DNA of 64,000 nt from Sphingobacteriaceae bacterium. Its GTDB lineage: Bacteria; Bacillota; Sulfobacillia; Thermaerobacterales; RSA17. The DNA lies in contig DATGRI010000058.1 in NCBI GenBank assembly GCA_035303785.1, positions 2,306 to 66,305 of the forward strand, given 5' to 3'. How positions within the stretch are numbered: position 1 is the stretch's first letter; each line of letters begins with the position of its first letter. This document shows, one piece after another, positions 24,347-54,165 of the stretch. Made by a program: the position numbers and the translations under genes. The notes under the pieces are model-generated. The model searched no databases. It was given only the letters and a program-made list of their open reading frames with translations, and had not been told where the DNA came from.

Positions 24347-25410
24347 GACCAAATCACCTCCGGCTTGCTGTCGGGCGGCGCCTCCTCTACGACGCCGATG
24401 GGCCAGGCGCCTCCCGTCAGGGGCGCCATGGCGGCACAAAATTCTTGGGCTTGGGCTGCCGGCACCACCACGGTGAAGCCGATGCCCAAATTGAAGGTGC
24501 GGCGCATTTCTTCTTCCTCCACGGGACCCAGGCGCCGGATCAGCCGGAAGACAGGCGGCTCCGGCCACGACCCGGCGTGGAGCCGGGCCCTGGTCCCCGG
24601 GGGCAGGGTGCGGGCCACGTTGTCCGTAAGGCCGCCGCCGGTGATATGGGCCATGGCCCGCAGGGAAAAACGGCCCCGGGCGGCTTTGACGGCGCCCGTG
24701 TAAAGGCGGGTGGGCTCCAGCAGCACTGTGCCCAACGGCGCCTCCAGTTCATCGATCTCCGTGGCTAAAGTCCAGCCGGTCCCCGCCAGCAGCACCCGCC
24801 GGGCCAGGGAAAAGCCGTTGCTGTGGAGGCCCGAGGAAGCCAAGCCCACGATGACGTCCCCCGGCTCCACCGACCGGCCGTCAATCAAGTCCCCGGCGGC
24901 CACCCCGCCCACGGCGAAGCCCGCCAATTCCATGTCGTCGGGGCCCATCATGCCGGGCAGCTCCGCCGTCTCGCCCCCCAGCAGGGCGCAGCCGGCCTCC
25001 CGGCAGGCGGCGGCGATGCCCGACACCACCGCTTCCGCCTGGTCCGGCCGGAGCCTGCCCATGGCCAGGTAGTCCAGGAAGAACCAGGGCTCGGCCCCGT
25101 ACACCAAAATGTCGTTCACATTCATGGCCACCAAGTCCCGGCCGGCCCCCTCCAGCCGCCCGGCTTCCCGGGCCAGGAGCAGCTTGGTGCCCACCCCGTC
25201 GGCCGCCGCCAGCAGGATGGTTTCCGGCTGGGCCCCCGGCACCCGGAACATGCCGGCAAAGCCCCCCACCCCGGACACCACCTCGGGCCGGGCGGTGGAG
25301 GCCGCCAGGGCCCGGAACCGTCCCACCAAGCTTTCGGCGGCATCGATGTCGACGCCGGCGGCCCGGTAGGTCACGGGCCGGCGGGCGTCGTCGCCCCGGC
25401 TTTCAGTCAT
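24343..25410 (-). CDS. purM: Phosphoribosylformylglycinamidine cyclo-ligase (AIR synthetase)
   Basis: YRAAGVDIDA, GVGGFAGMF, DGVGTKLLLA, HSNGFSLAR. ATG 25410 overlaps the purF 3' end by 8 nt. Confidence 0.92.
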   Translation of the reverse strand: MTESRGDDARRPVTYRAAGVDIDAAESLVGRFRALAASTARPEVVSGVGGFAGMFRVPGAQPETILLAAADGVGTKLLLAREAGRLEGAGRDLVAMNVNDILVYGAEPWFFLDYLAMGRLRPDQAEAVVSGIAAACREAGCALLGGETAELPGMMGPDDMELAGFAVGGVAAGDLIDGRSVEPGDVIVGLASSGLHSNGFSLARRVLLAGTGWTLATEIDELEAPLGTVLLEPTRLYTGAVKAARGRFSLRAMAHITGGGLTDNVARTLPPGTRARLHAGSWPEPPVFRLIRRLGPVEEEEMRRTFNLGIGFTVVVPAAQAQEFCAAMAPLTGGAWPIGVVEEAPPDSKPEVIWS

Positions 25411-26896
25411 GGGGGTCCCGATCTCCTTCCCGGTTCCCGTCGCCGGCTGCCGGCCCCTGCTCCCCCACCGGGGGGAAGCGGCCGGTGAAGCAGCCGTGAC
25501 AATAGGCATTTTCGTCTTGGCCGGTAACGGCCAACATTCCTTTCAAGGAAAGAAAGTACAAACTGTCGGCTCCCACCAGGCGCCGCATTTCCTCCACATC
25601 CCGGCCGGCCGCCATCAACTCGCCCCGGCGGCCGATGTCCACGCCGAAGGGGCACGGGTGGCGGAAGGGGGGCGAGGTGATGCACAGGTGGACTTGGGCG
25701 GCCCCCGCCTGGCGGACGGCGTTGACCAAGGGCCGGATGGTGCTGCCCCGGACGATGGAGTCATCCACCAGCACCACCCGCCGTCCGGCCACCACGTCCC
25801 GGATGGGGTTCAGCCGCCAGCGCACCCCGGCGGGCACGTAGCGGCCCCGGGGTCCGATGAAGGTGCGCCCCACATACCGGTTCTTCACCAAGCCCAGTTC
25901 GAAGGGGATGCCGGTAGCGGCGCTGTAGCCCATGGCCGCGGGCAGGCTGGCGTCGGGCACCCCCAGGACCACGTCAGCGTCCACCACGTGCTCCTGGGCC
26001 AGCTGCCGGCCCAAGGCCTGGCGGATGGCATAGGTGGAGCGGCCGCCGAAGAGGCTGTCGGCCCGGGCCAGGTAAATCAATTCGAAAACGCAGAAAGCCT
26101 GGGGGGTGTTTTCCAGGGAGGGCAGCCGCCCCCACTGCAGCCCCTGGTCATCGATCCAAACCCAGTGGCCCGCGGGCACTTCCTGGAGGGTGTCGCCGCC
26201 CACGGCATCAAAGGCGCAGCTTTCCGAGGCCAGCAGGTAAGCCTGGTCCAGGCGGCCCAGCACCAAAGGCCGGATGCCGTGGCGATCGCGAAAGCCGAGG
26301 ATGCCTTGGGGGGTGGCGTAGACGGCGGCCATGCCCCCGTCCACTTGGGTGAGGGAGTGGCCCAGGGCTTGGGGCCAGCCGTCGCCCGGAGCCCGGGCCG
26401 CCAGGTGGGCCAGGATTTCCGCGGCGTCGCCGGAGCGGAAGACGGCCCCTTGGGCCTCCAGCCGCTGCCGCAGGGCATCGGCCCCGGCCAAGGCGCCGTT
26501 GATGGCCACGGCCAGGTGGCTGTCCCGGCACCGGACCACCAGGGGCTGCCGGTCCGCCGGCTCCGTGGACTGCTGGACGTGGCCCAGGACGATGGTGCGG
26601 GCTCCCCGGGGACCTAAGGCCAGGTCGGCCAGCTCCTCCCCGGAGAACACGTCGGTGACCAGGCCCCTGCCTCCCAGCCGGGCGAACTGGTCATCCCCGG
26701 GACCCCAGGCGGCCATGCCCGTCCTTTGCTGCCCCCGGTGCTGGAGGGCGAACAAGCCTTGGTAGGCAATGTGAACCCCTTCGGGATGCCCGAAGACGGC
26801 GAACAGGCCCGAGTGGTCCCCGGCGGCGCCCCCGCCGGAGCCCGACCGGGCGCTCCCCGACCCTCCCGCCGGCGGCCTCACTGCCGGGGCGCCCAT
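25403..26896 (-). CDS. purF: Amidophosphoribosyltransferase homologue with non-canonical glutaminase active site
   Basis: The PRTase and Fe-S parts are conserved (VVLVDDSIVRGST, SPPFRHPCPFGVD, YCHGCFTG, FCVFELIY). The position of the Ntn nucleophile Cys reads Ser (DHSGLFAVFG; TCG codon at 26812..26810). GHVRY is replaced by GHVQQ. The start is ATG 26896 or GTG 26881 (GTGA overlap with the purL stop). The 813-aa track ORF is rejected. Confidence 0.85.
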   Translation of the reverse strand: MGAPAVRPPAGGSGSARSGSGGGAAGDHSGLFAVFGHPEGVHIAYQGLFALQHRGQQRTGMAAWGPGDDQFARLGGRGLVTDVFSGEELADLALGPRGARTIVLGHVQQSTEPADRQPLVVRCRDSHLAVAINGALAGADALRQRLEAQGAVFRSGDAAEILAHLAARAPGDGWPQALGHSLTQVDGGMAAVYATPQGILGFRDRHGIRPLVLGRLDQAYLLASESCAFDAVGGDTLQEVPAGHWVWIDDQGLQWGRLPSLENTPQAFCVFELIYLARADSLFGGRSTYAIRQALGRQLAQEHVVDADVVLGVPDASLPAAMGYSAATGIPFELGLVKNRYVGRTFIGPRGRYVPAGVRWRLNPIRDVVAGRRVVLVDDSIVRGSTIRPLVNAVRQAGAAQVHLCITSPPFRHPCPFGVDIGRRGELMAAGRDVEEMRRLVGADSLYFLSLKGMLAVTGQDENAYCHGCFTGRFPPVGEQGPAAGDGNREGDRDPHD

Positions 26897-29727
26897 GGCG
26901 GCTTGACTCCCCGGCCCGGCTCGGGCAGGTGATCGACAGGAGTGGACAACAAGGAGCGGCCCGCCACGGTTACGGCCAACCGCCCGCCGCCGGCGGCGCC
27001 CAGCACCGCAGCCGGGACACCCGCCGACCGGGCGGCCGCCAGCACTTGATCCGCCGCCGCCGGCGGCGTGCTCACCAGCACCCGGGAGGGCCCTTCGCCG
27101 AAGAGCAGGGCTTCGGCGTCGCCGTCCCACTGGTCCGGGGACAGGTCCACCTGCACCCCCAAAGGCCCGCCGGCGGCGGTGCGGCAGGCCCGGGCCAGGG
27201 CGGCGGCCAGGCCGCCCAGGTCTATGCCGGCGGCCGAAGCCAGCAGCCCGTCGCTGTGCAGCTGCTGGAGCAAGGCCCACAGGCGGGCTTCCAAATCCGA
27301 ATCCACTTGGGGCGGGCGGCCCTGCACCCGGCCGTAGCGGACGGCCAGGTACTCGCTGCCTGCCAGGTCGCCGGCCAAGGGCCCCAAGACGAGCACCGCA
27401 TGGCCCGCGGCCAGCCAGCCGGGGCCCAGCACCGGCCGTCCCGGCGGGAGAACCCCCACCACCCCCACCACCGGGGTGGGGTAGACGCCTTGGCCGCCCC
27501 GTTCGTTGTAAAGGCTCACGTTGCCGCCCGTCACCGGCACGTCCAGGCTGCGGGCGGCGGCGCCCATGCCTTCGATGATCTCGGTGAATTCCCACATGAT
27601 GGCGGGATCTTCGGGGCTGCCCAGGTTGAGGCAGTTGGTCAGCCCCAAGGGCTTGGCCCCGGTGCAGGCCACCCGCCGGCCCGCCTCGGCCACGGCGGCG
27701 GCGGCGCCCCGCCGGGGATCCAGCCACGTCAGCCGGCCGTTGCCCGCCAGGGCCACCACCAGATGCTGGCCCGTCCCGGGCACCGGCACCGCCGCCGCTC
27801 CCGTGGCCAGCAAGGTGTTGTCGTCGTGCTTGCCGCCCAGCCAATGGGCTTCCGTCAGGTTGGGGCCCGCCAGCAAATCCACCAGGGCTTCGTCATAGTC
27901 GGTGGAGCCGGCTCCGGCGGCGGCCTCCCCGCCGGCGGGGGCAGGCTCCCAGCGCCGGGCCAGGTCGGCGGGCTCCGCCACAGGCCGCCGGTAGGCCGGC
28001 GCCCCCTCCGTCAGAATGGTGGCCGGCAGGGCCGCCAGTTCCACATCGCCCATGGTCACCCGCACCAGGCCGTGGTCGGCCACCCGGCCGATGCAGGCCC
28101 CGGGCACGTTCCACTGGGTCAGGATTTGCTCCACCTGGGACTCCTTGCCCGCCTTGACGATGAGCAGCATCCGCTCCTGGGTTTCCGAAAGCATGATCTC
28201 GTGGGGGCTGAGGCGGGGCTCCCGGCAGGGCACCAGGTCCAGGTCCAGGTCCACGCCCTGGCCGGCCCGCCCGGCCGTCTCCGAGGCCGCCGAGGTGATG
28301 CCCGCCGCGCCCAGGTCGTTGACGCCCACCAGCAGGTCCGCCTCCATCATGGCCAGGCAGGCCTCCACCAGGCGGCGCTTCAACTGGGGGTTGGCGGCAG
28401 GCACCGTGGTGGGGGGGATGACCTCGTCGTCCAAGCCCCGGGACGAGGCGCTGGCCGCCCGCACCCCGTCGGGCCCCGTGCGGGCGCCCACCAGGTAAAT
28501 GGGGTTGCCCACCCCTTCTGCCCGGCCCCGGAACACCCGGTCCCGGTCCACGAAGCCGGCCGCCAGCACGTTGACCAGGGGCGCGGGGCGGTACCCCTCG
28601 CCGGAAAAGACGCTGGCGGTGAAGGTGGCGATGCCGGTGCCGGCAGCGTAGTCGGCCATGCCCTCGGCCGCCCCCAGCAGGATGTCTTGGTTGTTGCCTT
28701 CCTCCAGGGGGCCTACCCGCAGGGCCCCCGCCAGGAGGGCCGGCCGGGAGCCCACGGCCAGGATGTCCCGGACGATGCCCCCGGCGCCGGTGGCGGCGCC
28801 CCGGTGGGGATCCAGGCTGGAAGGATGGTTGTGGCTTTCACAGCGCAGGGCCACGGCCACGGGGCCGCCCAGGTCCACCACGCCGGCGTTCTCCCCGGGG
28901 CCCAGGAGCACCTGGGGCCCTTCCCGGGGCAGCCGGGCCAGGTGGATGCGGGTGCTCTTGTAGGAGCAGTGCTCCGACCACATGGCTCCTACCATTTCTA
29001 ATTCCAACTGGTTGGGGGCCCGGCCCAGCCCCTGGACCAAATCGTCGTATTCCTCCCGGGTCAGGCCCACGGCCTGCCAGGGCTCCCGGTGGGCCGCCAC
29101 CCGGTCGTAAACTTCCTGCCACCCCGGCTGGGCCTGCTGCTCGGCGAGGGCCAGCCGGAGGGTCCGGGGCGAGAGCTCGCCGGCCAGGAGGAGGGCGCCG
29201 TCTTCCGTGCGGCCGAACTCCAAACGCAGGTGGATCAGGTCCAGGCCCCTTTCCTTAAGGAATGAGCCCAGCACATCGTTGACGGCCAGGGCCACCTGCT
29301 CCAGCCGCTCCACTTCGTCGGGGCCGGCCAGCCCCAGCACCTGCACATGATGGTGGTTGACCAGAACCTCCTGGGACTCGTCCCCCCGGTAATAAAGCTC
29401 CACCACGGGCCGGGGCAGGGTGGAGCCGGGGGTCAGGCCCAGGCGCCGGGCCCAGGGCTCTTCCGCGGCGTTCCGCACCAGCACCGCCAGGGGGATGGGG
29501 GCTGTCCCCTGGACCAGCATCTCCCGGGGGTTCACCCGGGCGATGAAGTGGTTGGGTATGCCGGCTTCCGTCAAAACTTGAAACAGGCGGGCGGAAATCT
29601 CGTTGCCGGCCTCTTCCTTGAAATGAATCAAACAGCGATCGGGCCGGGCCGTGCCGTAAACGATCTTCGCCTCGTCTTCCCGCAGCTTCGGCCTGGCGCC
29701 GGCGTCCGGCGGCGATTGTCTATCCAT
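26878..29727 (-). CDS. purL: FGAM synthase subunit PurL fused to an N-terminal degenerate PurC (SAICAR synthetase)-like domain
   Basis: A single uninterrupted 949-aa ORF with ATG 29727 after GGGGAGGGGGAGGG. Residues ~225-949 are PurL (MWSEHCSYKS, ESHNHPS, GAATGAGGIVRD, MLSETQERMLL, GGNVSLYNE). Residues ~15-215 are collinear with PurC (GIPNHFI, PLAVLVRN, VVELYYRGD, LRLEFG, LAGELSPRTLRL) but lack the YEGKAK and DSATAFNG...GKG segments. Confidence 0.85.
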   Translation of the reverse strand: MDRQSPPDAGARPKLREDEAKIVYGTARPDRCLIHFKEEAGNEISARLFQVLTEAGIPNHFIARVNPREMLVQGTAPIPLAVLVRNAAEEPWARRLGLTPGSTLPRPVVELYYRGDESQEVLVNHHHVQVLGLAGPDEVERLEQVALAVNDVLGSFLKERGLDLIHLRLEFGRTEDGALLLAGELSPRTLRLALAEQQAQPGWQEVYDRVAAHREPWQAVGLTREEYDDLVQGLGRAPNQLELEMVGAMWSEHCSYKSTRIHLARLPREGPQVLLGPGENAGVVDLGGPVAVALRCESHNHPSSLDPHRGAATGAGGIVRDILAVGSRPALLAGALRVGPLEEGNNQDILLGAAEGMADYAAGTGIATFTASVFSGEGYRPAPLVNVLAAGFVDRDRVFRGRAEGVGNPIYLVGARTGPDGVRAASASSRGLDDEVIPPTTVPAANPQLKRRLVEACLAMMEADLLVGVNDLGAAGITSAASETAGRAGQGVDLDLDLVPCREPRLSPHEIMLSETQERMLLIVKAGKESQVEQILTQWNVPGACIGRVADHGLVRVTMGDVELAALPATILTEGAPAYRRPVAEPADLARRWEPAPAGGEAAAGAGSTDYDEALVDLLAGPNLTEAHWLGGKHDDNTLLATGAAAVPVPGTGQHLVVALAGNGRLTWLDPRRGAAAAVAEAGRRVACTGAKPLGLTNCLNLGSPEDPAIMWEFTEIIEGMGAAARSLDVPVTGGNVSLYNERGGQGVYPTPVVGVVGVLPPGRPVLGPGWLAAGHAVLVLGPLAGDLAGSEYLAVRYGRVQGRPPQVDSDLEARLWALLQQLHSDGLLASAAGIDLGGLAAALARACRTAAGGPLGVQVDLSPDQWDGDAEALLFGEGPSRVLVSTPPAAADQVLAAARSAGVPAAVLGAAGGGRLAVTVAGRSLLSTPVDHLPEPGRGVKPPWAPRQ

Positions 29728-29760
29728 GGGCCCTCCCCCTCCCCGGCAGATAGGCGGCGG

Positions 29761-31059
29761 TCACAAGCCCGCCCGGCGGTAAATGTGGTCCATGTGGCGC
29801 AAGGCCCGGGCCGGATCGAAGCATTCCCGGATCTGCTCCTCCGTCAGCTTGTCCCGGATGCGGGGATCCTGCATGACCAGGTCCGGGAACCGGCCCCGCC
29901 CTTCCCAGGCGTCCATGGCCAGGCCCTGGACGATGCCGTAGGCTTCCTCCCGGCTGAGGCCGGCGTCCACCAGAGCCAGCATCAAAGCCTGGGAGTAGAT
30001 CAAGCCGCCGGTCCGCTCCAAGTTGGCGGCCATGGCCTGGGGGTACACGTGCATGCCTTCCAAAACTACGGTCATCAGGTGGAGCATGTAGTCCAGCAGG
30101 ATGGTGGTGTCGGGCAGGATGATGCGCTCCACCGACGAGTGGGAAATGTCCCGCTCGTGCCACAAGGGCTGGTTCTCCAAGGCCGCCAGGGCGTTGCCCC
30201 GCACCACCCGGGCCAGGCCGCTGATGCGCTCGCACAAAACGGGATTGCGCTTGTGGGGCATGGCCGAGGAGCCCTTTTGGCCCGCCCGGAAAGGCTCCTC
30301 CACCTCCCGGGTTTCCGTCTTCTGCAGGTGGCGGATTTCCACGGCCATGGTCTCCAGGCTGCCGGCCAAAATGGCCAGGGCGGCCATCAATTCGGCGTGC
30401 CGGTCCCGCTGCAGCACCTGGGTGGACACCCCCGCGGGCTCCAGGCCCAAGGCCCGGCAGACGTACTCTTCCACCCGGGGGTCCACGGTGGCGAAGGTGC
30501 CCACGGCCCCCGACAGGCGGCCCACGCTGATGGTCTCCCGGGCCCGGACCAGCCGCTCCCGGTTGCGGCCGGCCTCGGCATACCACAAGGCCAGCTTGAA
30601 GCCGAAGGAAATGGGCTCGGCGTGGACGCCGTGGGTGCGGCCCACCATGATGGTGTCCCGGTGCTCCCGGGCGGCGGCGGCCAGAACCTCCCGCAGGCGG
30701 TCCAAGCCTTCCAGCAACATGTCCACCGCTTCCCTTAGGGCCAGGGACAGGGCGGTGTCCACCACGTCGTAGGAGGTGAGGCCGTAGTGGATCCAGCGGG
30801 CGTTGGGCCCCATGACCTCCCCCAGCCAGGTGGTGAAGGCTATGACGTCGTGGTGAACTTCGGCTTCGATGGCGTTGATGCGGTCTTCGTCGAAATATTC
30901 CGGCCGGCGGGCCTTCAAGTCTTCCACCGCTTCAGGGGGTACGTGCCCCAACCGGGCGAAGGCCTCGCAGGCCAGCAGCTCCACTTCCAGCCAGCGGCGG
31001 TACTTGGCCTGGTTGCTCCACAGGGCGGCCATGGCGGGGCGGGAATAACGGGGAATCAT
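29761..31059 (-). CDS. purB: Adenylosuccinate lyase
   Basis: [27 protein letters not shown], and fumarate-lyase signature GSSAMPHKRNP. ATGA overlap with the purE stop. Confidence 0.94.
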   Translation of the reverse strand: MIPRYSRPAMAALWSNQAKYRRWLEVELLACEAFARLGHVPPEAVEDLKARRPEYFDEDRINAIEAEVHHDVIAFTTWLGEVMGPNARWIHYGLTSYDVVDTALSLALREAVDMLLEGLDRLREVLAAAAREHRDTIMVGRTHGVHAEPISFGFKLALWYAEAGRNRERLVRARETISVGRLSGAVGTFATVDPRVEEYVCRALGLEPAGVSTQVLQRDRHAELMAALAILAGSLETMAVEIRHLQKTETREVEEPFRAGQKGSSAMPHKRNPVLCERISGLARVVRGNALAALENQPLWHERDISHSSVERIILPDTTILLDYMLHLMTVVLEGMHVYPQAMAANLERTGGLIYSQALMLALVDAGLSREEAYGIVQGLAMDAWEGRGRFPDLVMQDPRIRDKLTEEQIRECFDPARALRHMDHIYRRAGL

Positions 31060-31622
31060 GGGCTCTCACCGCTGCCGGCGGTTTCTTGGGGGCTGCCCGC
31101 CCCGGCAAGCCGGCGGCGCAGTTCATCGCCGGCGGCGGCCACCTGGGCCGCCATCTGCTCCCGGTGGGCCGCCAGGCGGGGCACCAGTTCCGGGTAGCGC
31201 AGGGCCAGGATGCGGGCCGCCAGGAAGGCGGCGTTGGCGCCCCCGTCGATGGCTACCGTGGCCACGGGCACGCCGCTGGGCATCTGCACCGTGGCCAGGA
31301 GGGCGTCCAGGCCGTCGGTGGCCCAGGCTTTCACGGGCACGCCGATCACCGGCAGGTGGGTGTAGGCGGCGATGACGCCGGCCAGGTGGGCGGAGCCCCC
31401 CGCCAAGGCGATGATGACGGCTATGCCCCGTTCATGGGCTGTACGGGCGAATTGGGCTACGGTGTCGGGGGTGCGGTGGGCGGAAGCGACGGTGACTTCG
31501 TAGGGAATGGCCAGTTGGTCTAGTGTAGTGGTGACCTTGGCGACCACCGGGGCATCGGAGGCACTGCCGGCCAGTACGGCCACCAGAGGCCCGGGGAGGC
31601 CGTCGCCCTGGGCGGGTGTCAC
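31056..31622 (-). CDS. purE: N5-CAIR mutase (class I PurE)
   Basis: [21 protein letters not shown] (class-I type), [22 protein letters not shown] 31622 lies 4 nt after GGAGGTGG. No purK follows it. Confidence 0.9.
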
Positions 31623-31637
31623 GGTACCACCTCCGGT

Positions 31638-31653: not shown

Positions 31654-31673
31654 CCTGGAATGTCTGTACCGAC

Positions 31674-31763: not shown

Positions 31764-32414
31764 CTAGTCCAGGGTGACGAGCCCCTTGCGGATGGCGTAC
31801 TTGGTCAACTGCACCGCATCGTGGAGCTGCAGCTTCTCCATGATGTTGGCCCGGTGGGCCTGCACCGTCTTGATGCTGATGAACAGGCGGTCGGCGATCT
31901 GCTGGTTGGTGAGGCCGTCGGCCACCAGCTTCAGCACTTCGATCTCCCGCTCCGTCAGGCCGTCGTAATCTTCCCGCTTCTCCCCGGCGCCCCGGCCGTG
32001 GAAGGCCATCCGGGCCACCTCGGGGTGGAGAATGGTGTGGCCCTGATGGACGGCCCGCAGGGCGGTCTTCAACTCCGAGGCCGCCGACCGCTTCAGCACG
32101 TAGCCCGCCGCGCCGGCCTGCATCAGCGGTGCCACGTATTCCTCGTCATCGTGCATGCTCAGGATGAGCACCTTGGTCTCGGGGAAGTCCTTGCGGATCT
32201 TGCGGGTGGCCTCGATGCCGTTCATGCGGGGCATGCCGATGTCCATCAGCACCACGTCGGGCCGCAGTTCGGCCACCATGGCCACGGCCTCTTCCCCGTC
32301 GGCGGCTTCGCCCACCACTTCCACATCGTCCTCCCGCTCCAGCAGGGAGCGGATCCCCTGGCGCAATATGCTGTGGTCGTCCACCAGCAGCACCCTGATG
32401 CGCTCTTCAGCCAT
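31764..32414 (-). CDS. Response regulator, NarL/LuxR (DegU/LiaR-like) family
   Basis: REC domain (RVLLVDDHSILRQG, DVVLMDIGMPRMNG) plus LuxR HTH (LTEREIEVLKLVADGLTNQQIADRLFISIKTVQAHR). ATG 32414 lies 6 nt after GGAGGGG. Confidence 0.9.
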   Translation of the reverse strand: MAEERIRVLLVDDHSILRQGIRSLLEREDDVEVVGEAADGEEAVAMVAELRPDVVLMDIGMPRMNGIEATRKIRKDFPETKVLILSMHDDEEYVAPLMQAGAAGYVLKRSAASELKTALRAVHQGHTILHPEVARMAFHGRGAGEKREDYDGLTEREIEVLKLVADGLTNQQIADRLFISIKTVQAHRANIMEKLQLHDAVQLTKYAIRKGLVTLD

Positions 32415-32428
32415 CTGCACCCCTCCCC

Positions 32429-33481
32429 TCATAGGTTGGCCACGGTGCGGGGAATCACCACCTTGACGGTGGTGCCCCGGCCGCGGATGGATGCTACCGT
32501 CAGGCGGCCGCCCACCAGTTCGGCCCTTTCCCGCATGCCGAAGAGCCCCATGCCCCGCCCGTTGGCGTCGGCCTTCTCCAGCTCCAGCAAGGAGAAGCCG
32601 ACACCGTCGTCGGTGATTTCCGCCGTCAGGGACTCTTCCGTCTCCCGCATGGTCACCGTCACGCTGCGGGCCCGGGCGTGCTTCTGCACATTGGTCAGGG
32701 CTTCTTGCACGATGCGGAACAAGGCCGTTTCCACTTCGTCGGGCAGCCGGCCCTGGAAGCCTTCTACGTCCATCTCCACGTGGATGCCCAAGGGGTCCAA
32801 TTTATGTTTAACATACCAGCGCAAGGCGGGGACGAGGCCCAGATCGTCCAGGATGGTGGGGCGCATGTCGAAGGTGATGCGCCGGGTTTCCGTCAGGGCG
32901 TCGGCGGCCATGTCCCGGATGCGGCCGATCTCCTCCGCCAGTTGGGCGTGGTTGGGGGAGCCGGCCAGGGAGTCCTTGATCAGGTCCAGCCGGATGACCA
33001 GGTTGGTCAAGGCCTGGCTCGTCTCGTCGTGGAGTTCCCGGGCGAAGCGCTTCCGCTCGTCCTCCAGGGCCCGCAGGATCTGGGAGGCCACGCTGCGCTG
33101 GTGCCGGGCCAGTTCGTCCAGCATCTGGTTCAAGGTGGCGGCCAGTTCCGCCACATCGGGGTCGCCGCTGATCTCCGGCGCCCGCTTTTCCCGGTCACCG
33201 CGGCGGATTTCCTCCATGGTTTCCCGCAGCAGGAACAAGGGGTGGAAGGCCACCCGCATCAGCAGGTAGTTGATGAGGAGACTGGCGCTGATGGCCGCGG
33301 CCAGGATGACGGTGGAGCCGGTGTAGGCGCCGGCCAGATCGGGCGCCGGCTCCCGAACGATGACCCAGGCCGATGCCAGGGCGGTGCCGGCGATCAAGGC
33401 CACGTTGGCCACCAACACCTTGTAGAAGATGGGTACCTGGGCATTCAGCCGGCGGATTACGTCGGCCACTGCCTGCAACAC
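32429..33481 (-). CDS. Sensor histidine kinase, HisKA_3 (NarX/DesK/LiaS-like) family
   Basis: Two TM segments, a HAMP-like linker, H-box ERKRFARELHDETSQALT and HATPase_c (VQEALTNVQKHA, DDGVGF, GMGLFGMRERAELVGG). GTG start 7 nt after GGAGG. Confidence 0.88.
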   Translation of the reverse strand: MLQAVADVIRRLNAQVPIFYKVLVANVALIAGTALASAWVIVREPAPDLAGAYTGSTVILAAAISASLLINYLLMRVAFHPLFLLRETMEEIRRGDREKRAPEISGDPDVAELAATLNQMLDELARHQRSVASQILRALEDERKRFARELHDETSQALTNLVIRLDLIKDSLAGSPNHAQLAEEIGRIRDMAADALTETRRITFDMRPTILDDLGLVPALRWYVKHKLDPLGIHVEMDVEGFQGRLPDEVETALFRIVQEALTNVQKHARARSVTVTMRETEESLTAEITDDGVGFSLLELEKADANGRGMGLFGMRERAELVGGRLTVASIRGRGTTVKVVIPRTVANL

Positions 33482-33496: not shown

Positions 33497-34726
33497 TCAT
33501 TCCCATTCGATGGTGCCGGGGGGCTTGGCGGTAATATCATAGGCCACCCGGGTGATGCCGGGCACTTCCCGCAGGATGCGGTCCGACAGCCGGGCCAGCA
33601 GGTCGTGGGGCAGGCGGGCCCACCCGGCGGTGACGGCATCCTGGCCGGTTACGGCCCGCAGCACCAGGGCCTCGCCGTACACCCGGCGGCCGTCGTCGGT
33701 GCCCACGGCCCGGGCGCCCGTCAAGACGGCGAAATACTGCCAGATGTCCCGGTCCAGCCCCGCCTGCCGGATCTCCTCCCGGAGGATGGCATCGGCCCGG
33801 CGCAGGACGGCCAGGCGCTGCGGCGTTACCTCTCCCAGCACCCGGATGGCCAGCCCGGGGCCGGGGAAGGGCTGGCGCCAGATGAGTTCCGGCGGCAGCC
33901 CCAGGGCGACGCCCACATCCCGCACCTCGTCCTTGAACAAATAGCGCAGGGGCTCCAGCAGGTCCAATTCCATCCGCTCGGGCAGCCCCACGTTGTGGTG
34001 GGTCTTGAGGGCTTTCCCCGACAGGAGCCCGCTTTCCAAGACATCGGTGTAGAGGGTGCCCTGGAGAAGGAAATCCATGTGGCCCAGGCGCCGGGCCTCC
34101 TCTTCGAAGACGGCGATGAATTCAGCCCCGATGCGGCGCCGCTTTTCTTCGGGGTCGGCCACCCCGGCCAGGGCCGCCAGGAACCGCTCCCCCGCATCCA
34201 CCGTGACTACGTTCCAGCCGAAGCTGCTGAAGGATTGGGGCACTTCCCGGGCCTCGCCCTCCCGCAGGAGGCCGTGGTCCACGAACAGGCACACCAGGCG
34301 CCGGCCGATGGCCCGGTGGACCAATGCCGCCGCCACCATGGAGTCCACGCCCCCGCTGAGGCCGGCCACCACGGTGCCGTCGCCCACCTTGTCCCGAATG
34401 GCCTGCACCGCCTGGTCCACCTGGGCCGCCGGCGACCAGCCGCCCCGACAGCCGCACTCCCGGAACAAGAAATCCCGCAGCCGGTCTTCGGCCACGGGCT
34501 CGCTGCCGGCCGCCAGGACGGGCAGTTCCGCCAATCCCGAAGCAGGGTCCTGATGGGTCGTCAACACCACGCCCCGCACCGCGGGCAGATCCCAGCCCTT
34601 GGGCGCGGTGCCGGGGGGCTGCAGTTCACAGTAAACGCCCAAGCTGCGAATTTGCCGCACCAGGCGGTGGCCCGCGCCGGTGCCGCCATCCACCACGATG
34701 ATGGCTTCGTCCCGGGAACGGAACAT
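33497..34726 (-). CDS. guaA: GMP synthase with intact ATP-pyrophosphatase/dimerisation domains but a truncated GATase domain
   Basis: The ATP-PPase P-loop ([11 protein letters not shown]) and C-terminus ([39 protein letters not shown]) are conserved. The N-terminus keeps only [27 protein letters not shown]... and then joins directly to the ...[10 protein letters not shown] linker. There is no G(V/I)CYGMQ Cys or HPE His/Glu segment. The protein is 409 aa, versus about 510-525 aa for fused GuaA as I recall. Confidence 0.85.
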
Positions 34727-46650: not shown

Positions 46651-47172
46651 TCATCCATCTTTTGCGTCGTCATCCGAGGGGTCGCCTTGGCCGCCGGGCC
46701 GCAGCACCCGGGCCGGCACCCCGCCCACCAGGGCTCCGGGGGGCACGTCCCGGTTCACCAGGGAATGGGCGGCCACCACCGCCCCGTCCCCGATGGCCAC
46801 CCCCGGCAAGATGGTGCAGTTGGCGCCGATCATCACGTTCTTGCCGATGTGGACGGGGCCCCGGCGCCATTCACCGGTCAAAAATTCATGGGTCAAGATG
46901 GTGGTGTTGTAGCCGATGATGGCGTTGTCCTCCACGGTGATGTCCTGGGGGAAGAATATGTCCACCATGGCCATGAGGCCGAAGGAGACATCCCGGCCCA
47001 CCTTCATGCCCAGCATGCGGTAGATGGCGTTTTTCACCGTCAGCCACGGCACGTAGCGGGCCGTGACGATCCAGAACAAGTTCCACCCGGAGCGCCAGAA
47101 GCCGGCCACCTGGGGCCAGTAGTGCATGCTGTTGCGGCCGGGGGGCACGGGATGACGCTGGACCCGCCGCAT
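46651..47172 (-). CDS. Hexapeptide-repeat (LbH) acyl/acetyltransferase
   Basis: Left-handed beta-helix repeats (ITVEDNAIIGYNTTILTHE..., VHIGKNVMIGANCTILPGVAIGDGAVVAAHSLV) after a hydrophobic N-terminus. Confidence 0.7.
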   Translation of the reverse strand: MRRVQRHPVPPGRNSMHYWPQVAGFWRSGWNLFWIVTARYVPWLTVKNAIYRMLGMKVGRDVSFGLMAMVDIFFPQDITVEDNAIIGYNTTILTHEFLTGEWRRGPVHIGKNVMIGANCTILPGVAIGDGAVVAAHSLVNRDVPPGALVGGVPARVLRPGGQGDPSDDDAKDG

Positions 47173-47175
47173 CCT

Positions 47176-49434: not shown

Positions 49435-49438
49435 TTCG

Positions 49439-49951
49439 TCATCCTCCTGTGGGCGGAAGGGCCAGGGCGGCCAGAAGCTCCCCATGGCGGGGGCCGCCCG
49501 CCCCCAAAACCACCCGGCGGCCGGAAGGGGCGCCGGGTAAGTAACTTAATTCTACCGACAGGTGGTCGGCAGGCAACCAATCCCCCAGGCGGTCGGCCCA
49601 CTCGATGATAAGCACGGTGACGCCGTCCAGGGCTTCCTCCAGTTCCGGCAGAAAACCCCCCGGGTCCAGCCCCGGCTCAAGACGGTAAAGATCCACATGG
49701 ACGGCGGGGCAGCGCCCCTGGTAGCGGTGCATCAGGGTGAAGGTGGGGCTGGACACCGGCTCCGTCACCCCCAGGCCCGCCAGGAACCCCTGGGCAAAGG
49801 TAGTCTTGCCCACCCCCAGGGGGCCCTTCAAGGCCACGATGCCGCCGCAGGGGATGAGGCGCCCCAGTTCATGGGCCAGAGCCTGCAGGGCCTCGGCCGA
49901 GGCAATAACCACCGATCGGGACGCCCCCCTGGTCTCCCCGTTGTCGCCCAC
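49439..49951 (-). CDS. tsaE: tRNA threonylcarbamoyladenosine biosynthesis ATPase TsaE
   Basis: P-loop LKGPLGVGKTTF, SPTFTLMHRY, HVDLYRL. The start is set at GTG 49951 after GAGGAGG. Confidence 0.85.
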   Translation of the reverse strand: MGDNGETRGASRSVVIASAEALQALAHELGRLIPCGGIVALKGPLGVGKTTFAQGFLAGLGVTEPVSSPTFTLMHRYQGRCPAVHVDLYRLEPGLDPGGFLPELEEALDGVTVLIIEWADRLGDWLPADHLSVELSYLPGAPSGRRVVLGAGGPRHGELLAALALPPTGG

Positions 49952-49964
49952 CGCCGCCACCTCC

Positions 49965-50717
49965 TCAAACTTCCAGCCCTGCCCCCTTGGCCGCCGCCGC
50001 CTCCACCAAGCCGGCGAACAAGGCCATGAACCGGGGCTGGTACGCCGCCATGGTCTCGGGATGCCACTGCACCCCCAGGATGAAGGAGCCGTCGCCCTTT
50101 TCCACCGCTTCCACCACACCGTCGGGGGCCGCGGCGGCCGCCTGGAAGCCCGGCGGCACCAAATCCACGGCCTGGTGGTGAAAACTGTTGACCCGCAGGG
50201 GCCCCTCTCCCAGGAGCCGGGCCAGCAGGGTGCCCGCCGCGACGGCCACGTCGTGGGTGCCGTACCAAGGGGGGGCCTGCTGCCGGTGCTTCAGGGCCCC
50301 GGGCACCTGGCTCGGTATATCTTGCAGCAAGGTGCCGCCGGCGGCAACGCACAGCACCTGGAGGCCCCGGCAAATGCCCAGGATGGGCATGCCGGCGGCC
50401 AGGGCGTCCCGGACCAGGGCCAGTTCCGCCCCATCCCGCTCCGGGGTGATGCGGCCCAGCCGCGGCAGGGGATCCTCCCCGTAGTGGTTGGGATCCACGT
50501 CGGCGCCGCCGGCCAGCAGCAGGCCGTCCACCCGCTCCAGCCAGCAGGCCGTCAACTCCGGCTCCGCCAGGGCGGGAATGAGCACGGGCAGCCCTCCCGC
50601 CTCGGCCACCACGGCGGCGTAGGCCGCCGGCAGGGTCAACTGCCCCTCCGCGGTGTGATCCGTCGGAATGCCGATGACCGGCCGCCGTCCCCTCTCCCGG
50701 ACCAGGCTGTCCCTCAT
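49965..50717 (-). CDS. Peptidase C26 / gamma-glutamyl hydrolase-type class-I glutamine amidotransferase-like protein
   Basis: RPVIGIPTD, LLLAGGADVDPNHYGE, nucleophile elbow ILGICRGLQVL, HHQAV, GVQWHPE. The catalytic Cys/His/Glu context appears intact. Confidence 0.8.
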   Translation of the reverse strand: MRDSLVRERGRRPVIGIPTDHTAEGQLTLPAAYAAVVAEAGGLPVLIPALAEPELTACWLERVDGLLLAGGADVDPNHYGEDPLPRLGRITPERDGAELALVRDALAAGMPILGICRGLQVLCVAAGGTLLQDIPSQVPGALKHRQQAPPWYGTHDVAVAAGTLLARLLGEGPLRVNSFHHQAVDLVPPGFQAAAAAPDGVVEAVEKGDGSFILGVQWHPETMAAYQPRFMALFAGLVEAAAAKGAGLEV

Positions 50718-50782
50718 GATCTCCACATCCCTTCCAGGTTGCCCGCGCAACGGGCTGCCCTTCCAGGATGTGCAGGGGAGCC

Positions 50783-52546
50783 TCAGCCGGTGAAACCCGT
50801 CAGGCCGTAGGCCTCCAGCAAGGCCTCCTCCACTTGGTCGCCGGCGGAGGCCAGCAGGGCCGCCGCCCGGGGAACCCAGGCCGCCACCTCGCCCGCCAGG
50901 AGGCCCCGCCGCCACGGCCCGCCGGCAAAGGCGGCCGCCACCTGGCCGGCAGGACTGTCGCCGGCGGCGGGACCGGGGAAACCGCCTGTGACATCGGCCG
51001 CCCCCAGGGCAGCAGCCAGCCCGTGGATCATCACCGCCGCCTCGGCCGCCGCCAAGGGGGGCCGGCGGGCCGCCAGCAGGGCGCCGGTGATGCCGGCCAG
51101 CACATCGCCGGTGCCCCCGGCGGCCAGGGCCCCGTCCACCACGGGGCTCAGGCGTTGGGGGCGTCCGGGGGAGGCCATCAAGGTGCGGGCCCCCTTCAGG
51201 ACCACCACGGCGGGCCGCCGGGCCGCGATGGCCGCCGCCGCCCGGGGCCGGTGGGCCTGCACCTCCGCCGTGGACCATCCCAGCAGCCGGGCCGCCTCCC
51301 CCGGATGGGGCGTCAAAACCAAGGGGGGATCCTCCCCGTCCCCGCCGGCGGACGGGACGGGGGGCAGGTCCCAGGCCTGCCCTTCCTGAGGGTGAAGCAG
51401 GCGGAGGGCGTCGGCATCCAAAACTACGGGCGCGCCCCGGGCGGCCGCCGCCCGCCAGGCCCCCGCCGCCACCGCCAGGGCGTCCGGCCTGCTCCCCAGG
51501 CCGGGCCCGATGACCACGGCATCGATGTTGCGCTGGTTGAAAAACTCTTCTATGACCGGCAGGGCCTCCGGTGTGAATAGTCCGCTGCCCCCGTCGGGCA
51601 GGGGCAGGGTCATGGCTTCGGGCAGCTGGCCCCAGGCCGCTGCCTGGGCGGCGGGCAAGGCTATCGTCACCAGGCCGGCGCCGGCCCGCAGGGCGCCCCG
51701 GGCCGCCAGCCAGGGGGCTCCCCCCATGCCCCGGCTGCCCCCCACGATGAGGCAGTGGCCACCCAGGCCTTTATGGGCCAGGGCGGGCTCGGGCAGCATG
51801 GAGCGCAGGTGGGCGCCCACGGCGCCGGGCAGGCTCAGCACCGCCGCCGGCTGAGCGGTGGCGGTGTCGATGCCGATGGGGGCCAGCACCACCCGGCCCG
51901 TGTAGGGTATGGCCGGGCCCTGGAGGATCCCCGTCTTGGCCAGTCCGAAGGTGACCGTCACATGGGCCCGCACGGCAGGGCCCAAGGGCGAACCGCCGTC
52001 GGCGTCCAAGCCCGAAGGCACATCCAGGGCAATGACCACGGCCCCCCGGCGTCCCGCCTCGTTGATGGCTTCTATGGCCGCAGCGTAGCGCTCCCGGGGC
52101 GGCCCGGCCAGCCCCGTGCCCAGGAGGGCGTCGACCACCAGAGGCGGGTGGCCGGCGGCCCAGTCCAGGACGTCGGGGCTGAACTCCGCCAATGGCCGGG
52201 GCTCCAGGCCCGCCGCCAGGGCCAGCTGCCGGTGATGGGCGGCGTCAGGGGTCAGACCCTGGCCCCCGGAGGCCGCCTCCCACACGGTGACCCGGGCCCC
52301 CGCCGCCGCCAGGTGCCTGGCCACCACGTAGCCGTCGCCGCCGTTGTTGCCCCGGCCTGCCAGGACGGCCGCCTCCCGCCGGGCCAAGGGGCCCAGCTGC
52401 TCCGCCATCACGGCGAAGGCCGCCCCCCCGGCCCGCTCCATCAAAGTCTCACCGCTGACACCTTCGACGTCGATGGTGTGCCGGTCCAGCCGCCGCATCT
52501 CGGCGGCGGTCACCAAACAGCTCCGGGTGGCTGCGTCGGTAGTCAT
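50783..52546 (-). CDS. nnr: Bifunctional NAD(P)H-hydrate repair enzyme (epimerase + ADP-dependent dehydratase)
   Basis: YjeF_N motif GRGNNGGDGYVVARHL, carbohydrate-kinase-like C-domain (GPGLG..., GGTGDVLAGI). ATGA overlap with the acpS stop. Confidence 0.85.
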   Translation of the reverse strand: MTTDAATRSCLVTAAEMRRLDRHTIDVEGVSGETLMERAGGAAFAVMAEQLGPLARREAAVLAGRGNNGGDGYVVARHLAAAGARVTVWEAASGGQGLTPDAAHHRQLALAAGLEPRPLAEFSPDVLDWAAGHPPLVVDALLGTGLAGPPRERYAAAIEAINEAGRRGAVVIALDVPSGLDADGGSPLGPAVRAHVTVTFGLAKTGILQGPAIPYTGRVVLAPIGIDTATAQPAAVLSLPGAVGAHLRSMLPEPALAHKGLGGHCLIVGGSRGMGGAPWLAARGALRAGAGLVTIALPAAQAAAWGQLPEAMTLPLPDGGSGLFTPEALPVIEEFFNQRNIDAVVIGPGLGSRPDALAVAAGAWRAAAARGAPVVLDADALRLLHPQEGQAWDLPPVPSAGGDGEDPPLVLTPHPGEAARLLGWSTAEVQAHRPRAAAAIAARRPAVVVLKGARTLMASPGRPQRLSPVVDGALAAGGTGDVLAGITGALLAARRPPLAAAEAAVMIHGLAAALGAADVTGGFPGPAAGDSPAGQVAAAFAGGPWRRGLLAGEVAAWVPRAAALLASAGDQVEEALLEAYGLTGFTG

Positions 52547-52935
52547 GGCTTCCCGCCGGGGGCGCCCGTCAGCACTACGACGGCCGCGGCGTAATGGTTT
52601 TCGTGGGTGAGGGACAGGTGGACGCCGGTGACCCCCATGGCCTGCAGCCGCCGGGCCAGCCCCCCGGTCACCCGCAGGGACGGCTTGCCCAGGGGGTCGT
52701 TGACCACTTCGGCATCCAGCCAGCGGCCATCCCGCAGGCCGGTGCCCAAGGCTTTGACCAGAGCTTCCTTCGCCGCCAGGCGGGCCGCCAGGCGCCGGTA
52801 GCGATGGGGGCCGTCCCCCGCCGCCGCCTGCTCCCCGGGGGTGAAGAGGCGGTTCAAAAAGGCGGCGCCCTTGCGGCCGTGGGCCTGCTCCACCCGCCCT
52901 ACGTCCACCATGTCGATGCCCAGGCCGAGGATCAT
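52543..52935 (-). CDS. acpS: Holo-[acyl-carrier-protein] synthase
   Basis: MILGLGIDMVDVGRV, FTPGEQ, KEALVKALGTG, HLSLTHE. ATG 52935 lies 6 nt after GAGGTG (track GTG 52944 is an alternative). Confidence 0.88.
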   Translation of the reverse strand: MILGLGIDMVDVGRVEQAHGRKGAAFLNRLFTPGEQAAAGDGPHRYRRLAARLAAKEALVKALGTGLRDGRWLDAEVVNDPLGKPSLRVTGGLARRLQAMGVTGVHLSLTHENHYAAAVVVLTGAPGGKP

Positions 52936-52990
52936 CACTTTCACCTCGGCCCTTAGCTTACCGATTTATGGGGCCATTTCCTCCCGGAGC

Positions 52991-53016
52991 CCCCGCCGGC
53001 CCGGCGGCCGCCGGGG
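52991..53016 (-). terminator. GC-rich palindrome right after the glmS-like stop (possible terminator/processing hairpin)
   Basis: Perfect 16-nt palindrome CCCGGCGGCCGCCGGG (53000..53015) plus flanking complementary G/C runs. No U-tract. Confidence 0.3.
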
Positions 53017-54165
53017 TCAGTCCTCGGTGAGGCTCTTCACCAGATGGCGGGGCTGGTCCACATTGCGGCCAAGGGCTACGGCCGCGTGATAGGCCAGCAG
53101 CTGCAGGGGCACTACCGACAGCATGGGCCCGAAGATGGGCTCCACCGGGGGTATGGGCAGGAAGTGGTCGGCATGGCGGGCCAGTTCACGGCTGCCGGCG
53201 GGAGCCACCGCCACCACCTGGGCTCCCCAGCGGCGCACTTCCTGGAAGTTGCGGGCCATCATCTCCTCCAGGTCGGGCCTGGTGACGATGCCCACCACGC
53301 TGTAGTCGGAATCAATCAAGGCCATGGGGCCGTGGCGGAACTCGCCGGCGGCGCACGCTTCAGCATGGATGTAGGAAGTTTCTTTAAGCTTCAATTGCCC
53401 TTCATGGGCGGTGATCCAGTCCATCTGCCGGCCGATGTAGAAGGCGTGGCGCCGCCGGGCCAAGTCCCGGCCGGCTTGGGCCACGGCTTCCTCCTCCGCC
53501 AGCACGGCGGCCACCTGGTCGGGCATGGCCGCCAGGCCCGCCAGGATGCGGGCCGCCTCTTCCCGGGGCAAGGTCTCCTGGGCCCGCCCCAAGCCGACGG
53601 CCAGCAGGACTACCGCCACCAACTGGGCCATGTAGGCTTTGGTGGAGGCCACCGCCTCCTCGGTGCCGGCCTGGGTGATGAAGGTGAAATCGGCTTCCCG
53701 GGTGATGGCGCTGCCGGGCGCGTTGGTCACCGCCAGGACAGCTGCGGCGCCCCGCTGCCGGGCAGCCGCCAGGGCGGCCAGGGTATCCTTGGTTTCCCCC
53801 GACTGGCTGACGGCCACGGCCAAAGTGCCCGGAGGAACCCGGAATTCCCCGAAGCGGAACTCCGACGCGGGTTCGGTGCGGGCGGGCAGGCCCGCCACCT
53901 GCTTGACCAGGGCGTCGCCCACCAAGCCGGCATGGTAGGCGGTGCCGCTGCCCAAAAACAAAACATGCCGCACCTGGGCCAGGGCGGCCTGATCCAAACC
54001 CGTGCCGGACCAATCCACATCCCCCGCCTGCCGTCCCAGGCGGCCGGCCAGGGTACGGCTGATGGCCTGGGGCTGCTGGAAAATCTCCTCATGCATCTTA
54101 TGACGGTGGCCTCCCGGCCGGCCGGCGCCGGCCTGGGTCCCTTCTATGGGCAGTTCCTTGACCAT
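53017..54165 (-). CDS. GlmS-like sugar isomerase (2xSIS) protein lacking the N-terminal glutaminase domain
   Basis: 382 aa, starting MVKELPIEG...HRHKMHEEIFQQPQAISRTL, which corresponds to the start of the GlmS isomerase half. SIS motifs (FLGSGTAYHAG, VSQSGETKDTL, EEAVASTKAY). GlmS-type C-tail VPLQLLAYHAAVALGRNVDQPRHLVKSLTED. ATG 54165 lies 7 nt after AAGGAGA and only 14 nt after the glmM stop. Confidence 0.85.
   Translation of the reverse strand: MVKELPIEGTQAGAGRPGGHRHKMHEEIFQQPQAISRTLAGRLGRQAGDVDWSGTGLDQAALAQVRHVLFLGSGTAYHAGLVGDALVKQVAGLPARTEPASEFRFGEFRVPPGTLAVAVSQSGETKDTLAALAAARQRGAAAVLAVTNAPGSAITREADFTFITQAGTEEAVASTKAYMAQLVAVVLLAVGLGRAQETLPREEAARILAGLAAMPDQVAAVLAEEEAVAQAGRDLARRRHAFYIGRQMDWITAHEGQLKLKETSYIHAEACAAGEFRHGPMALIDSDYSVVGIVTRPDLEEMMARNFQEVRRWGAQVVAVAPAGSRELARHADHFLPIPPVEPIFGPMLSVVPLQLLAYHAAVALGRNVDQPRHLVKSLTED

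Follow-up and report, generated by a model that had tools for sequence, protein, structure and literature searches.

The glutamine amidotransferases are textbook cases of an obligatory coupling between glutaminase and synthase via gated ammonia tunnels. Here we describe a 64,000-nt stretch of contig DATGRI010000058.1 (from here: the window), in which four such enzymes, encoded by purF, purL, guaA and the gene in the position of glmS, occur without the residues, domains or partner genes of glutaminase function. The GC content of the window is 62-73% and nearly all genes are located on the minus strand, as judged by the GC content at third codon positions (GC3). According to Pfam and NCBIfam matches, the order on this strand is rapZ, a polyprenyl synthase gene, rex, cdaA, cdaR, glmM, the gene of a protein made of SIS domains (from here: SIS protein), acpS, nnr and the gene of a C26 GATase, followed by tsaE/B/D, murC, IMPDH, folC, opp, groEL, hpt, guaA and the genes of a histidine kinase and a response regulator, and then by purE, purB, a purC'::purL fusion, purF, purM, purN, purH and purD and, further on, pcrA, ligA, gatCAB and nuo. 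The genes of the four enzymes, cdaA-cdaR-glmM, the C26 gene, gatA-gatB and the remaining pur genes described below are all on the minus strand.

The window PurL (HLS89319.1, 26878-29727) and the SIS protein (HLS89343.1, 53017-54165) belong to the same contig of one third-party annotation (TPA) metagenome-assembled genome (MAG), where they are publicly annotated plainly as "PurL" and "SIS domain-containing protein". The host is, as indicated by its gene content and synteny, its spore-coat genes and the nearest homologues, an uncultured, high-GC spore-forming member of the Bacillota near Thermaerobacter and Symbiobacterium; the nearest homologues of the SIS protein come from Thermaerobacter, Symbiobacteriaceae and Caldinitratiruptor. 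The label of the MAG, "Sphingobacteriaceae bacterium", is probably a taxonomic mis-assignment. Contigs of the same organism are present in many sequencing runs and in JGI Ga0079224, which is the metagenome of a compost pile and stems from a higher-temperature sample (PMC8986864). A sister lineage with 82-100% protein identity to the window was available for comparison, and all ratios of nonsynonymous to synonymous substitution rates (dN/dS) given here are from this pair, at a dS of about 0.36.

The purF gene (25403..26896) encodes a protein of 497 aa, which is assigned as an orthologue by TIGR01134 (370.8 bits against a cut-off of 350, profile positions 2-432). It consists of an N-terminal extension (residues 1-28, 26813-26896; dN/dS 0.68), an N-terminal nucleophile (Ntn) domain (residues 29-255; dN/dS 0.137) and a phosphoribosyltransferase (PRTase) domain (residues 256-497, matching PF00156; dN/dS 0.140). 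In the alignment to the B. subtilis enzyme 1AO0, Ser29 (26810-26812) stands opposite Cys1 of the mature protein and the motif GHVQQ opposite GHVRY; the four cysteine ligands of the B. subtilis-type Fe-S cluster are present. Aligned with the real E. coli sequence and in its numbering, the replacements are C1S, R73Q and Y74Q (Gln108-Gln109, 26570-26575) and D127A (Ala158, 26423-26425), with R26, G27, N101, G102 and I335 kept. In the E. coli structures, Arg73, Tyr74 and Asp127 are residues of glutamine binding and coupling. Altogether, 9 of 74 near-invariant columns differ from the consensus in this PurF, among them C1, R73, Y74, D127 and two residues of the PRTase flexible loop; the median of ordinary PurFs is 2, and the relative L091 has no such departure.

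A cysteine nucleophile occurs in 134 of the 139 PurF representatives that are covered at the N-terminus. Among the 150 nearest cluster representatives, serine was found in three others only, which have another signature (an MSG start, and DG for NG). These three PurF-like representatives (P0428, P0448 and P0492), in which DG replaces the NG oxyanion pair, are perhaps of an archaeal paralogue type. The E. coli variants C1S and C1A lose the glutamine activity, which is not detectable in C1S, and keep NH3-dependent synthesis of phosphoribosylamine (PMC3261824). The nucleophile is likewise replaced in natural non-Cys paralogues, i.e. in crenarchaeal PurF' and in Methanocorpusculum Mlab_0150, which has a serine. 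Unlike these second copies, the window PurF is the operon-encoded positional orthologue, and it also lacks Arg73, Tyr74 and Asp127.

The guaA gene (33497..34726) encodes 409 aa. The alignment to 1GPM pairs residues 8-36 with 9-37 of E. coli GuaA and residues 84-409 with 195-525, such that 47 residues replace the 157 residues (E. coli 38-194) holding Cys86, His181 and Glu183. What is left of the GATase domain (residues 1-95, 34442-34726) thus has no Cys/His/Glu triad, and its residues 37-83 evolve at a dN/dS of 0.82. The ATP pyrophosphatase (ATP-PPase) and dimerisation domains (residues 96-409) score 430 bits with TIGR00884 (cut-off 339) and possess the SGGVDS loop; NF000848 is matched at positions 179-512 only, leaving 1-178 without a counterpart, and the dN/dS of the ATP-PPase is 0.138. 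The ATP-PPase of GMP synthetase (GMPS) does not depend on the GATase and can by itself form GMP with NH4+ (PMC10526850). In lacking the triad, the window GuaA resembles archaeal GuaAb, the ATP-PPase subunit of two-subunit GMPS, and its residues 98-409 align with two subunit-B chains of the PDB, 6JP9 and 2DPL. It differs from GuaAb in being a bacterial two-domain GuaA after an internal deletion, with a 95-residue remnant kept.

The purC'::purL fusion (26878-29727; 949 aa) combines a SAICAR_synt domain with the FGAR-AT linker and two pairs of AIRS and AIRS_C domains. Its PurC-derived N-terminal domain (PurC') and the junction (residues 1-221, 29065..29727) are recognized by PF01259 (2e-35); with TIGR00081, PurC' reaches 114 bits at a cut-off of 189.9. 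Compared with 2YWV and the PurC of relatives, motifs of substrate binding are lost: GKAK has become DEAK, AGS has become EEP and DEISPD has become GELSPR, the SATAFDG segment is deleted and the DKDRFR region is missing. Hence, PurC' is predicted to be catalytically dead. The dN/dS is 0.29 for PurC', 0.87 for the junction and 0.164 for the PurL proper (smPurL part, residues 222-949, 26878..29064), which exceeds the cut-off of NF002290 (677.6 against 648 bits) and keeps the catalytic SEHC and SHNHPS motifs.

The operon hpt-guaA-histidine kinase-response regulator-purE-purB-purC'L-purF-purM-purN-purH-purD contains no purS, purQ, purK or separate purC. The operon of the sister lineage likewise lacks purS and purQ, both of which are present at the same place in the relatives L090 and L091 (guaA-histidine kinase-response regulator-purE-purB-purC-purS-purQ-purL-purF). 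PurC is canonical in these relatives, as is PurF in relatives of this type (EECGVF, GHVRY, HNGNL). Since the gene order is the same and purC, purS, purQ and purL are separate there, purS and purQ were deleted in place, and what was left of purC became fused to purL. Among 5.8 billion clusters, the fusion was found in two only, those of the window and the sister lineage. The next-nearest PurLs (53-54% identity) come from the Bacillota MAGs GCA_003387785.1 and GCA_036381855.1, which have separate purC, purS, purQ and purL genes.

The body of the window PurL is altered as well. Of the 168 columns with a conservation of at least 95% among 118 smPurLs, 29 differ from the consensus, against a median of 1 in ordinary smPurLs; two other PurLs (P0003 and P0004) match the consensus at all 29. 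The changes lie in three places, with the E. coli (Ec) numbering verified on E. coli PurL: in the C-loop and its ends (Ec 445-473), including the equivalent of Q471; at Ec 377-393 around the tunnel residue A384; and at Ec I655, which adjoins the mouth-gate residue D657. In the C-loop (residues 417-445, 28393-28479, mapped to E. coli/Salmonella numbering) these are R419P, I422V, H423R, G424A, A428S, Q443P and G445A, and a further cluster is found at residues 361-375. Changes at Ec N722, H883, D884 and E896 presumably affect the auxiliary ADP site. The C-loop is the cap over formylglycinamide ribonucleotide (FGAR) and an allosteric switch, signalling via the N-domain, the equivalent of PurS, to the glutaminase (PMC7124931). 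The tunnel exit is gated in the human enzyme by Q485 (PMC13013826), and the glutamine equivalent to it is replaced in the window PurL. Three further smPurLs (P0005, P0031 and P0072) show 16-20 near-invariant departures each, 9-13 of them common to the 29 of the window, and the C-loop of P0005 (TGRQGVRSAS) resembles that of the window (TGPDGVRAAS); judged by their sequences, these may be further lineages with an uncoupled PurL.

The B. subtilis smPurL alone is said, in work by Hoskins et al. from 2004, to use NH3. In some methanogens, mdPurL is an smPurL with about 200 extra N-terminal residues, purS being absent and PurQ kept (PMC3261824). The window PurL is similar in having an N-terminal extension of about 200 aa where the PurS-like domain of lgPurL sits, and in the absence of purS, here from the locus. 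It is different in that the extension is a recognizable degenerate SAICAR synthetase, that purQ is gone from the locus, too, and that its body carries the 29 near-invariant changes.

The fourth case is located behind cdaA-cdaR-glmM (54180..57163), upstream genes that define the glmS slot and have the same order in the sister lineage, in lineage 3 and in the closest relative with a full-length GlmS (L180). The gene in this slot (53017..54165; dN/dS 0.15) encodes 382 aa with two SIS domains. Only the stretch 234-606 of E. coli GlmS has a counterpart in this protein, in which K485, E488, H504 and K603 are all conserved. Matches to GlmS models cover positions 245-605 only, with 364 bits against 418 for TIGR01135 and 371 against 381 for NF001484. 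Its leader has a dN/dS of 0.48 and its core one of 0.134. The spacer to glmM measures 14 nt (54166..54179) with an AGGAG and holds neither a glmS ribozyme nor a remnant of the glutaminase; Rfam gave no match to the glmS ribozyme in the window, in L096 or in lineage 3 (L092). This ribozyme is usual in the glmS leader of Bacillota. In L180, cdaA-cdaR-glmM is followed by a spacer of 389 nt with RF00234 (109.6 bits) and by a glmS of 608 aa. Compared with this arrangement both ribozyme and glutaminase domain are gone, which one deletion of about 1 kb would explain.

SIS-only versions of GlmS were found in four lineages, down to 64% identity and always in the same slot behind glmM; homologues from about 52% identity down are all full-length GlmS. 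Being common to the four lineages, the deletion of ribozyme and first 227 or so codons is the oldest event and predates the other three. The SIS-only proteins differ at 26-42 of 177 invariant GlmS columns (ordinary median 1). In the window, the C-tail reads HLVKSLTED for NLAKSVTVE (53020-53046), and A602V occurs in all four lineages and V605L in three of them. The ammonia channel of GlmS is formed by the C-tail and Trp74 (PMC7948480), the latter belonging to the domain that is missing here.

Two SIS domains homologous to the isomerase half of GlmS also make up archaeal GlmD, bacterial NagB-II and AgaS, in which the reaction is glutamine-independent and reversible, fructose 6-phosphate (Fru6P) + NH3 <-> glucosamine 6-phosphate (GlcN6P). 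The equilibrium constant is 0.2 M, and the SIS-type GlmD can run towards GlcN6P at high NH4+. Membership of the SIS protein in NagB-II (NF046059, 111.7 bits, cut-off 430), GlmD (NF041128, 90.4 bits, cut-off 580) or AgaS (29 bits) is ruled out by scores far under the cut-offs. Different from these families, it is a truncated GlmS by sequence and encoded in the glmS slot behind glmM.

All four features recur in the sister lineage. The window is also matched, at 99.88-99.99% DNA identity, by eight independent assemblies, in which the genes have the same lengths. These identical structures rule out an assembly or frameshift artefact, which the original prediction had named as one thing that would refute it. 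That prediction had been made from the sequence alone and had named a serine at the Ntn nucleophile of PurF with QQ for the R-Y pair, a PurL with a degenerate PurC-like N-domain in place of purS and purQ neighbours, a GuaA with only the start of its class-I GATase domain and without the triad segment, and a glmS slot encoding the isomerase half only. Each of these descriptions is borne out: by the 1AO0 and E. coli alignments for PurF, by domains, model scores and motifs for PurL, by the 1GPM alignment for GuaA and by the alignment to E. coli GlmS for the SIS protein. It was likewise correct in calling the four genes intact reading frames with good Shine-Dalgarno (SD) sequences, as purF, purC'::purL, guaA and the SIS gene all begin with ATG behind an SD-like sequence, and in seeing no general gene decay. 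The latter is excluded by dN/dS values of 0.06-0.22 for every pur gene, guaA and the SIS gene. The twelve genes of the purine locus range from 0.007 to 0.22 and the second locus from 0.07 to 0.38. Thus, the acceptor (synthase) halves are working genes under purifying selection, and the leftover linkers are near neutral. The nearest ordinary relatives are canonical where visible: at the corresponding positions, their PurF has the Cys nucleophile and the RY pair, purC, purS, purQ and purL are separate genes, and GlmS is of full length; this covers the PurF, purC-S-Q-L and GlmS loci, their GuaA being partly visible only. These observations support four real, lineage-specific and independent losses, one by a set of point mutations and three by different deletions.

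The signature of selection also bears on the possibility that the organism meets its need for purines and amino sugars by salvage from nutrient-rich compost, in which case the altered genes would be relics or repurposed. The SIS protein would then be a catabolic GlcN6P deaminase like GlmD/NagB-II, PurF to PurM would only deliver aminoimidazole ribonucleotide (AIR) for thiamine, and PurB and PurH would serve the synthesis of AMP and the recycling of AICAR. Consistent with this, hpt adjoins guaA, an Opp-type transporter is encoded nearby, the operon has no working PurC, the deamination direction is favoured, and Akkermansia covers its loss of GlmS by uptake of N-acetylglucosamine (GlcNAc); the loss of a GlcN6P-sensing ribozyme would be in keeping with a gene that has ceased to control synthesis. 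Against salvage, every pur gene including purE, purH and purD is constrained across the two lineages, as are the GuaA ATP-PPase and the SIS core, the SIS gene directly follows glmM in four lineages, and its product scores far higher as a GlmS (371 bits) than as a deaminase of the NagB-II (112 bits) or GlmD family (90 bits). We consider salvage unlikely.

Two intact glutaminase-type proteins of the window provide a contrast. The amidase-type glutamine amidotransferase encoded by gatA-gatB (8334..11360) is intact, GatA keeping its nucleophile motif GGSSGGSAAAVA, and the stand-alone peptidase C26/class-I GATase of 250 aa (49965..50717) keeps GICRG...HPE and an intact Cys-His-Glu triad; that both proteins keep their nucleophile motifs agrees with the original prediction. 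The C26 protein is a candidate trans-acting glutaminase, which might free NH3 from glutamine or another gamma-glutamyl amide; alternatively, PurF Ser29 might itself be the Ntn nucleophile on another amide donor. The C26 gene is located beside nnr, downstream of the SIS gene, at a position conserved in three lineages; the unrelated glmS neighbourhood of Caldinitratiruptor gives no information on it. The best model match of its product is to PuuD-like gamma-glutamyl hydrolases, with 133 bits under a cut-off of 266, and as the only GATase1 protein in the window it scores 39 bits with the GuaA-A-type model (cut-off 198). Its dN/dS of 0.38 is the highest in its locus, and no finding connects the protein with PurF, PurL, GuaA or the SIS protein. 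A serine serves as the nucleophile in other Ntn hydrolases, and the Ntn domain of PurF is strongly constrained with N101 and G102 kept, which would suit a catalytic Ser29. The E. coli C1S enzyme speaks against it, however, as does the loss of the glutamine-binding R73 and D127, and Ser29 would become free only after cleavage of the 28-residue N-extension. Both variants of an alternative ammonia donor appear quite improbable to us.

Direct use of ammonia by PurF, PurL, GuaA and the SIS protein is, with moderate confidence, the best explanation of these data, and we infer that the synthase halves now take free NH3 directly. The glutaminase function of the four amidotransferase steps was disabled or deleted in this hot-compost lineage by four separate events. 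One deletion of about 1 kb took away the glmS ribozyme and the first approximately 227 glmS codons, another took away purS and purQ, joining the PurC remnant to PurL, and an internal deletion took out the catalytic core of the GuaA GATase domain, while all four glutamine-site residues of PurF were replaced by substitutions. With ammonia used directly, the PRTase site of PurF would aminate phosphoribosyl pyrophosphate (PRPP) with NH3, the smPurL would make formylglycinamidine ribonucleotide (FGAM) from NH3, and the ATP-PPase of GuaA would aminate adenyl-xanthosine monophosphate (adenyl-XMP) with NH3. The SIS-only protein would run the reversible reaction between Fru6P plus NH3 and GlcN6P beside GlmM. 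The changes in the PurF loop with Tyr74, in the C-loop, exit-gate glutamine and tunnel wall of PurL and in the GlmS C-tail might represent the loss of unneeded gating or the opening of these sites to solvent NH3. The PurF Ntn domain and PurC' might be kept as structural scaffolds, PurC' standing where PurS or the N-domain of lgPurL attaches. A warm, alkaline and ammonia-rich habitat could make the ATP spent on glutamine dispensable. The original prediction had considered that free ammonia, or ammonia from a trans-acting glutaminase, feeds purine, GMP and amino-sugar synthesis. Its ammonia part gains from the reality and lineage specificity of the losses, the deletion of purS/purQ at their ancestral site, the joint disappearance of glmS ribozyme and glutaminase domain, the remodelled coupling elements and the compost source; the dead PurC and the reported inability of canonical GlmS to use NH3 cut against it.

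Several points weigh against direct ammonia use. With PurC' dead, a working purC is expected elsewhere and the operon would not be the whole pathway. The genes purS and purQ often travel with purC; a functional purC probably lies outside the operon, and purS/purQ or other paralogues might be there, too. The absence of the partners was established for the window and for the corresponding loci of the sister lineage. According to one report (PMC9272926), canonical GlmS cannot use ammonia, which makes a deaminase or salvage role a live alternative for the GlmS step, and Akkermansia without GlmS depends on external GlcNAc. The Michaelis constants for NH4+ are high, with 26-174 mM for GMPS (PMC10526850) and 41 mM for a NagB, and the ammonia level in the source samples is assumed. 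The Ntn domain of PurF is under the same constraint as its PRTase domain, and a role as scaffold alone would not fully account for this. Several PurL changes are in the FGAR-binding part of the C-loop, so that catalysis and not coupling alone could suffer. Finally, the dN/dS values rest on one pair of lineages and are noisy for short segments.

The first of these points leads to the explanation that the genome holds glutaminase partners or intact paralogues outside the window, such as a second purC-purS-purQ or an lgPurL, a stand-alone GuaA GATase subunit of the archaeal kind, a Cys-PurF and a full-length GlmS. The window genes would then work in trans or be diverged second copies, and the case would shrink to an unusual set of diverged duplicates. 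Another purC should indeed exist if PurC' is dead and purE, purB and purH are constrained. Moreover, the known non-Cys PurFs are second copies beside a canonical PurF, the N-extension of methanogen mdPurL replaces PurS yet keeps PurQ (both PMC3261824), a two-subunit GMPS occurs in nature (PMC10526850), and our evidence covers the window part of the genome. On the other hand, all four genes occupy the ancestral syntenic positions of the canonical genes, which makes them orthologues rather than extra copies, and purS/purQ were lost from the ancestral site. A partnership with PurQ/PurS should have preserved the C-loop, exit-gate glutamine and mouth of PurL, all of which are heavily replaced, and four separate paralogue replacements are less parsimonious than one change of the selective regime. 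In a shallow screen, and hence as a weak negative, no member from the source MAG was found in 18 candidate PurC/PurQ clusters or in 10 clusters of full-length GlmS. A search with a chimeric PurC+PurQ homologue returned 120 matches of 41-76% identity, none assignable to the window organism. The candidate second pur locus P0276 was rejected because it comes from a different organism, whose purS-purQ-purL operon is ordinary. A scan of a genome collection with the fusion protein picked up universal 8-mers of PurL and yielded only PurLs, from many phyla and at about 40% identity; two metagenome scans, one with the PurC' alignment and one with the PurF N-terminus, found no close relatives. We regard intact paralogues elsewhere as possible but doubtful.

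Each ammonia-dependent half-reaction is already known, and it is their combination in one lineage that appears to be undescribed; no description of the four-enzyme combination was found in the literature searched. A search of the literature on natural glutaminase-lacking forms and on the roles of PurF residues yielded nothing relevant. The precedents, i.e. non-Cys PurF, mdPurL, two-subunit GMPS and GlmD/NagB-II, are second copies, ancient splits or members of other families; here, positional orthologues are concerned. A comparable situation is known for NAD synthetase, where an NH3-dependent single-domain NadE and a glutamine-dependent NadE with a fused glutaminase exist in different organisms, the same synthetase chemistry thus occurring with and without the glutaminase module. 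NadE is, however, one family with an ancient split, whereas in the window four unrelated amidotransferases have lost the module in one shallow lineage. Tentatively, we propose that at least four unrelated amidotransferases (PurF, PurL, GuaA and GlmS) of a free-living Bacillota lineage in compost have turned obligately ammonia-dependent by domain deletion and gate remodelling. Among them would be a PurL in which a dead PurC stands in for PurS, and an ammonia-dependent GlcN6P synthase derived from GlmS, the first natural one of its kind. The synthesis of purines and cell-wall precursors would then largely have given up glutamine as amide donor. If so, the glutaminase module is dispensable under some ecologies, probably those of high free ammonia, temperature and pH. 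Natural ammonia-dependent versions of PurF, PurL, GuaA and GlmS would then be at hand for the study of tunnel gating and for glutamine-free nucleotide and glucosamine synthesis, and automated annotations such as "PurL" and "SIS domain-containing protein" would overlook metabolic shifts of this kind.

The remainder of the purine operon, purM-purN-purH-purD (20653..25410), is intact and constrained. Between purE (31056-31622) and purB (29761-31059), no purK is present in the window, the sister lineage or the ordinary relative L090. PurE is of class I (SAHRTP) and thus needs N5-carboxyaminoimidazole ribonucleotide (N5-CAIR), yet purK is absent from this site. No purine or ZTP riboswitch was found. 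Between guaA and purE, a LuxR-type response regulator and a HisKA_3 kinase are encoded (31764-33481) in the window, the sister lineage and L090 alike. Window and sister lineage share a response regulator of 100% identity (dN/dS 0.007), and the pair of regulator and kinase may control the purine operon.

Two other regions are mentioned for completeness. At 46651-47172, a hexapeptide acetyltransferase is encoded that is similar to heptaprenylglyceryl-phosphate O-acetyltransferase (206 bits, cut-off 300), and lineage 3 has a Lit-family gene at this position. At 62938-63999 and beyond the window end (L120 1-9500), a spore-coat-like cluster encodes three YheC/D ATP-grasp proteins, two phiEco32-like COOH-NH2 ligases, CotE and an M14/M99 peptidase.

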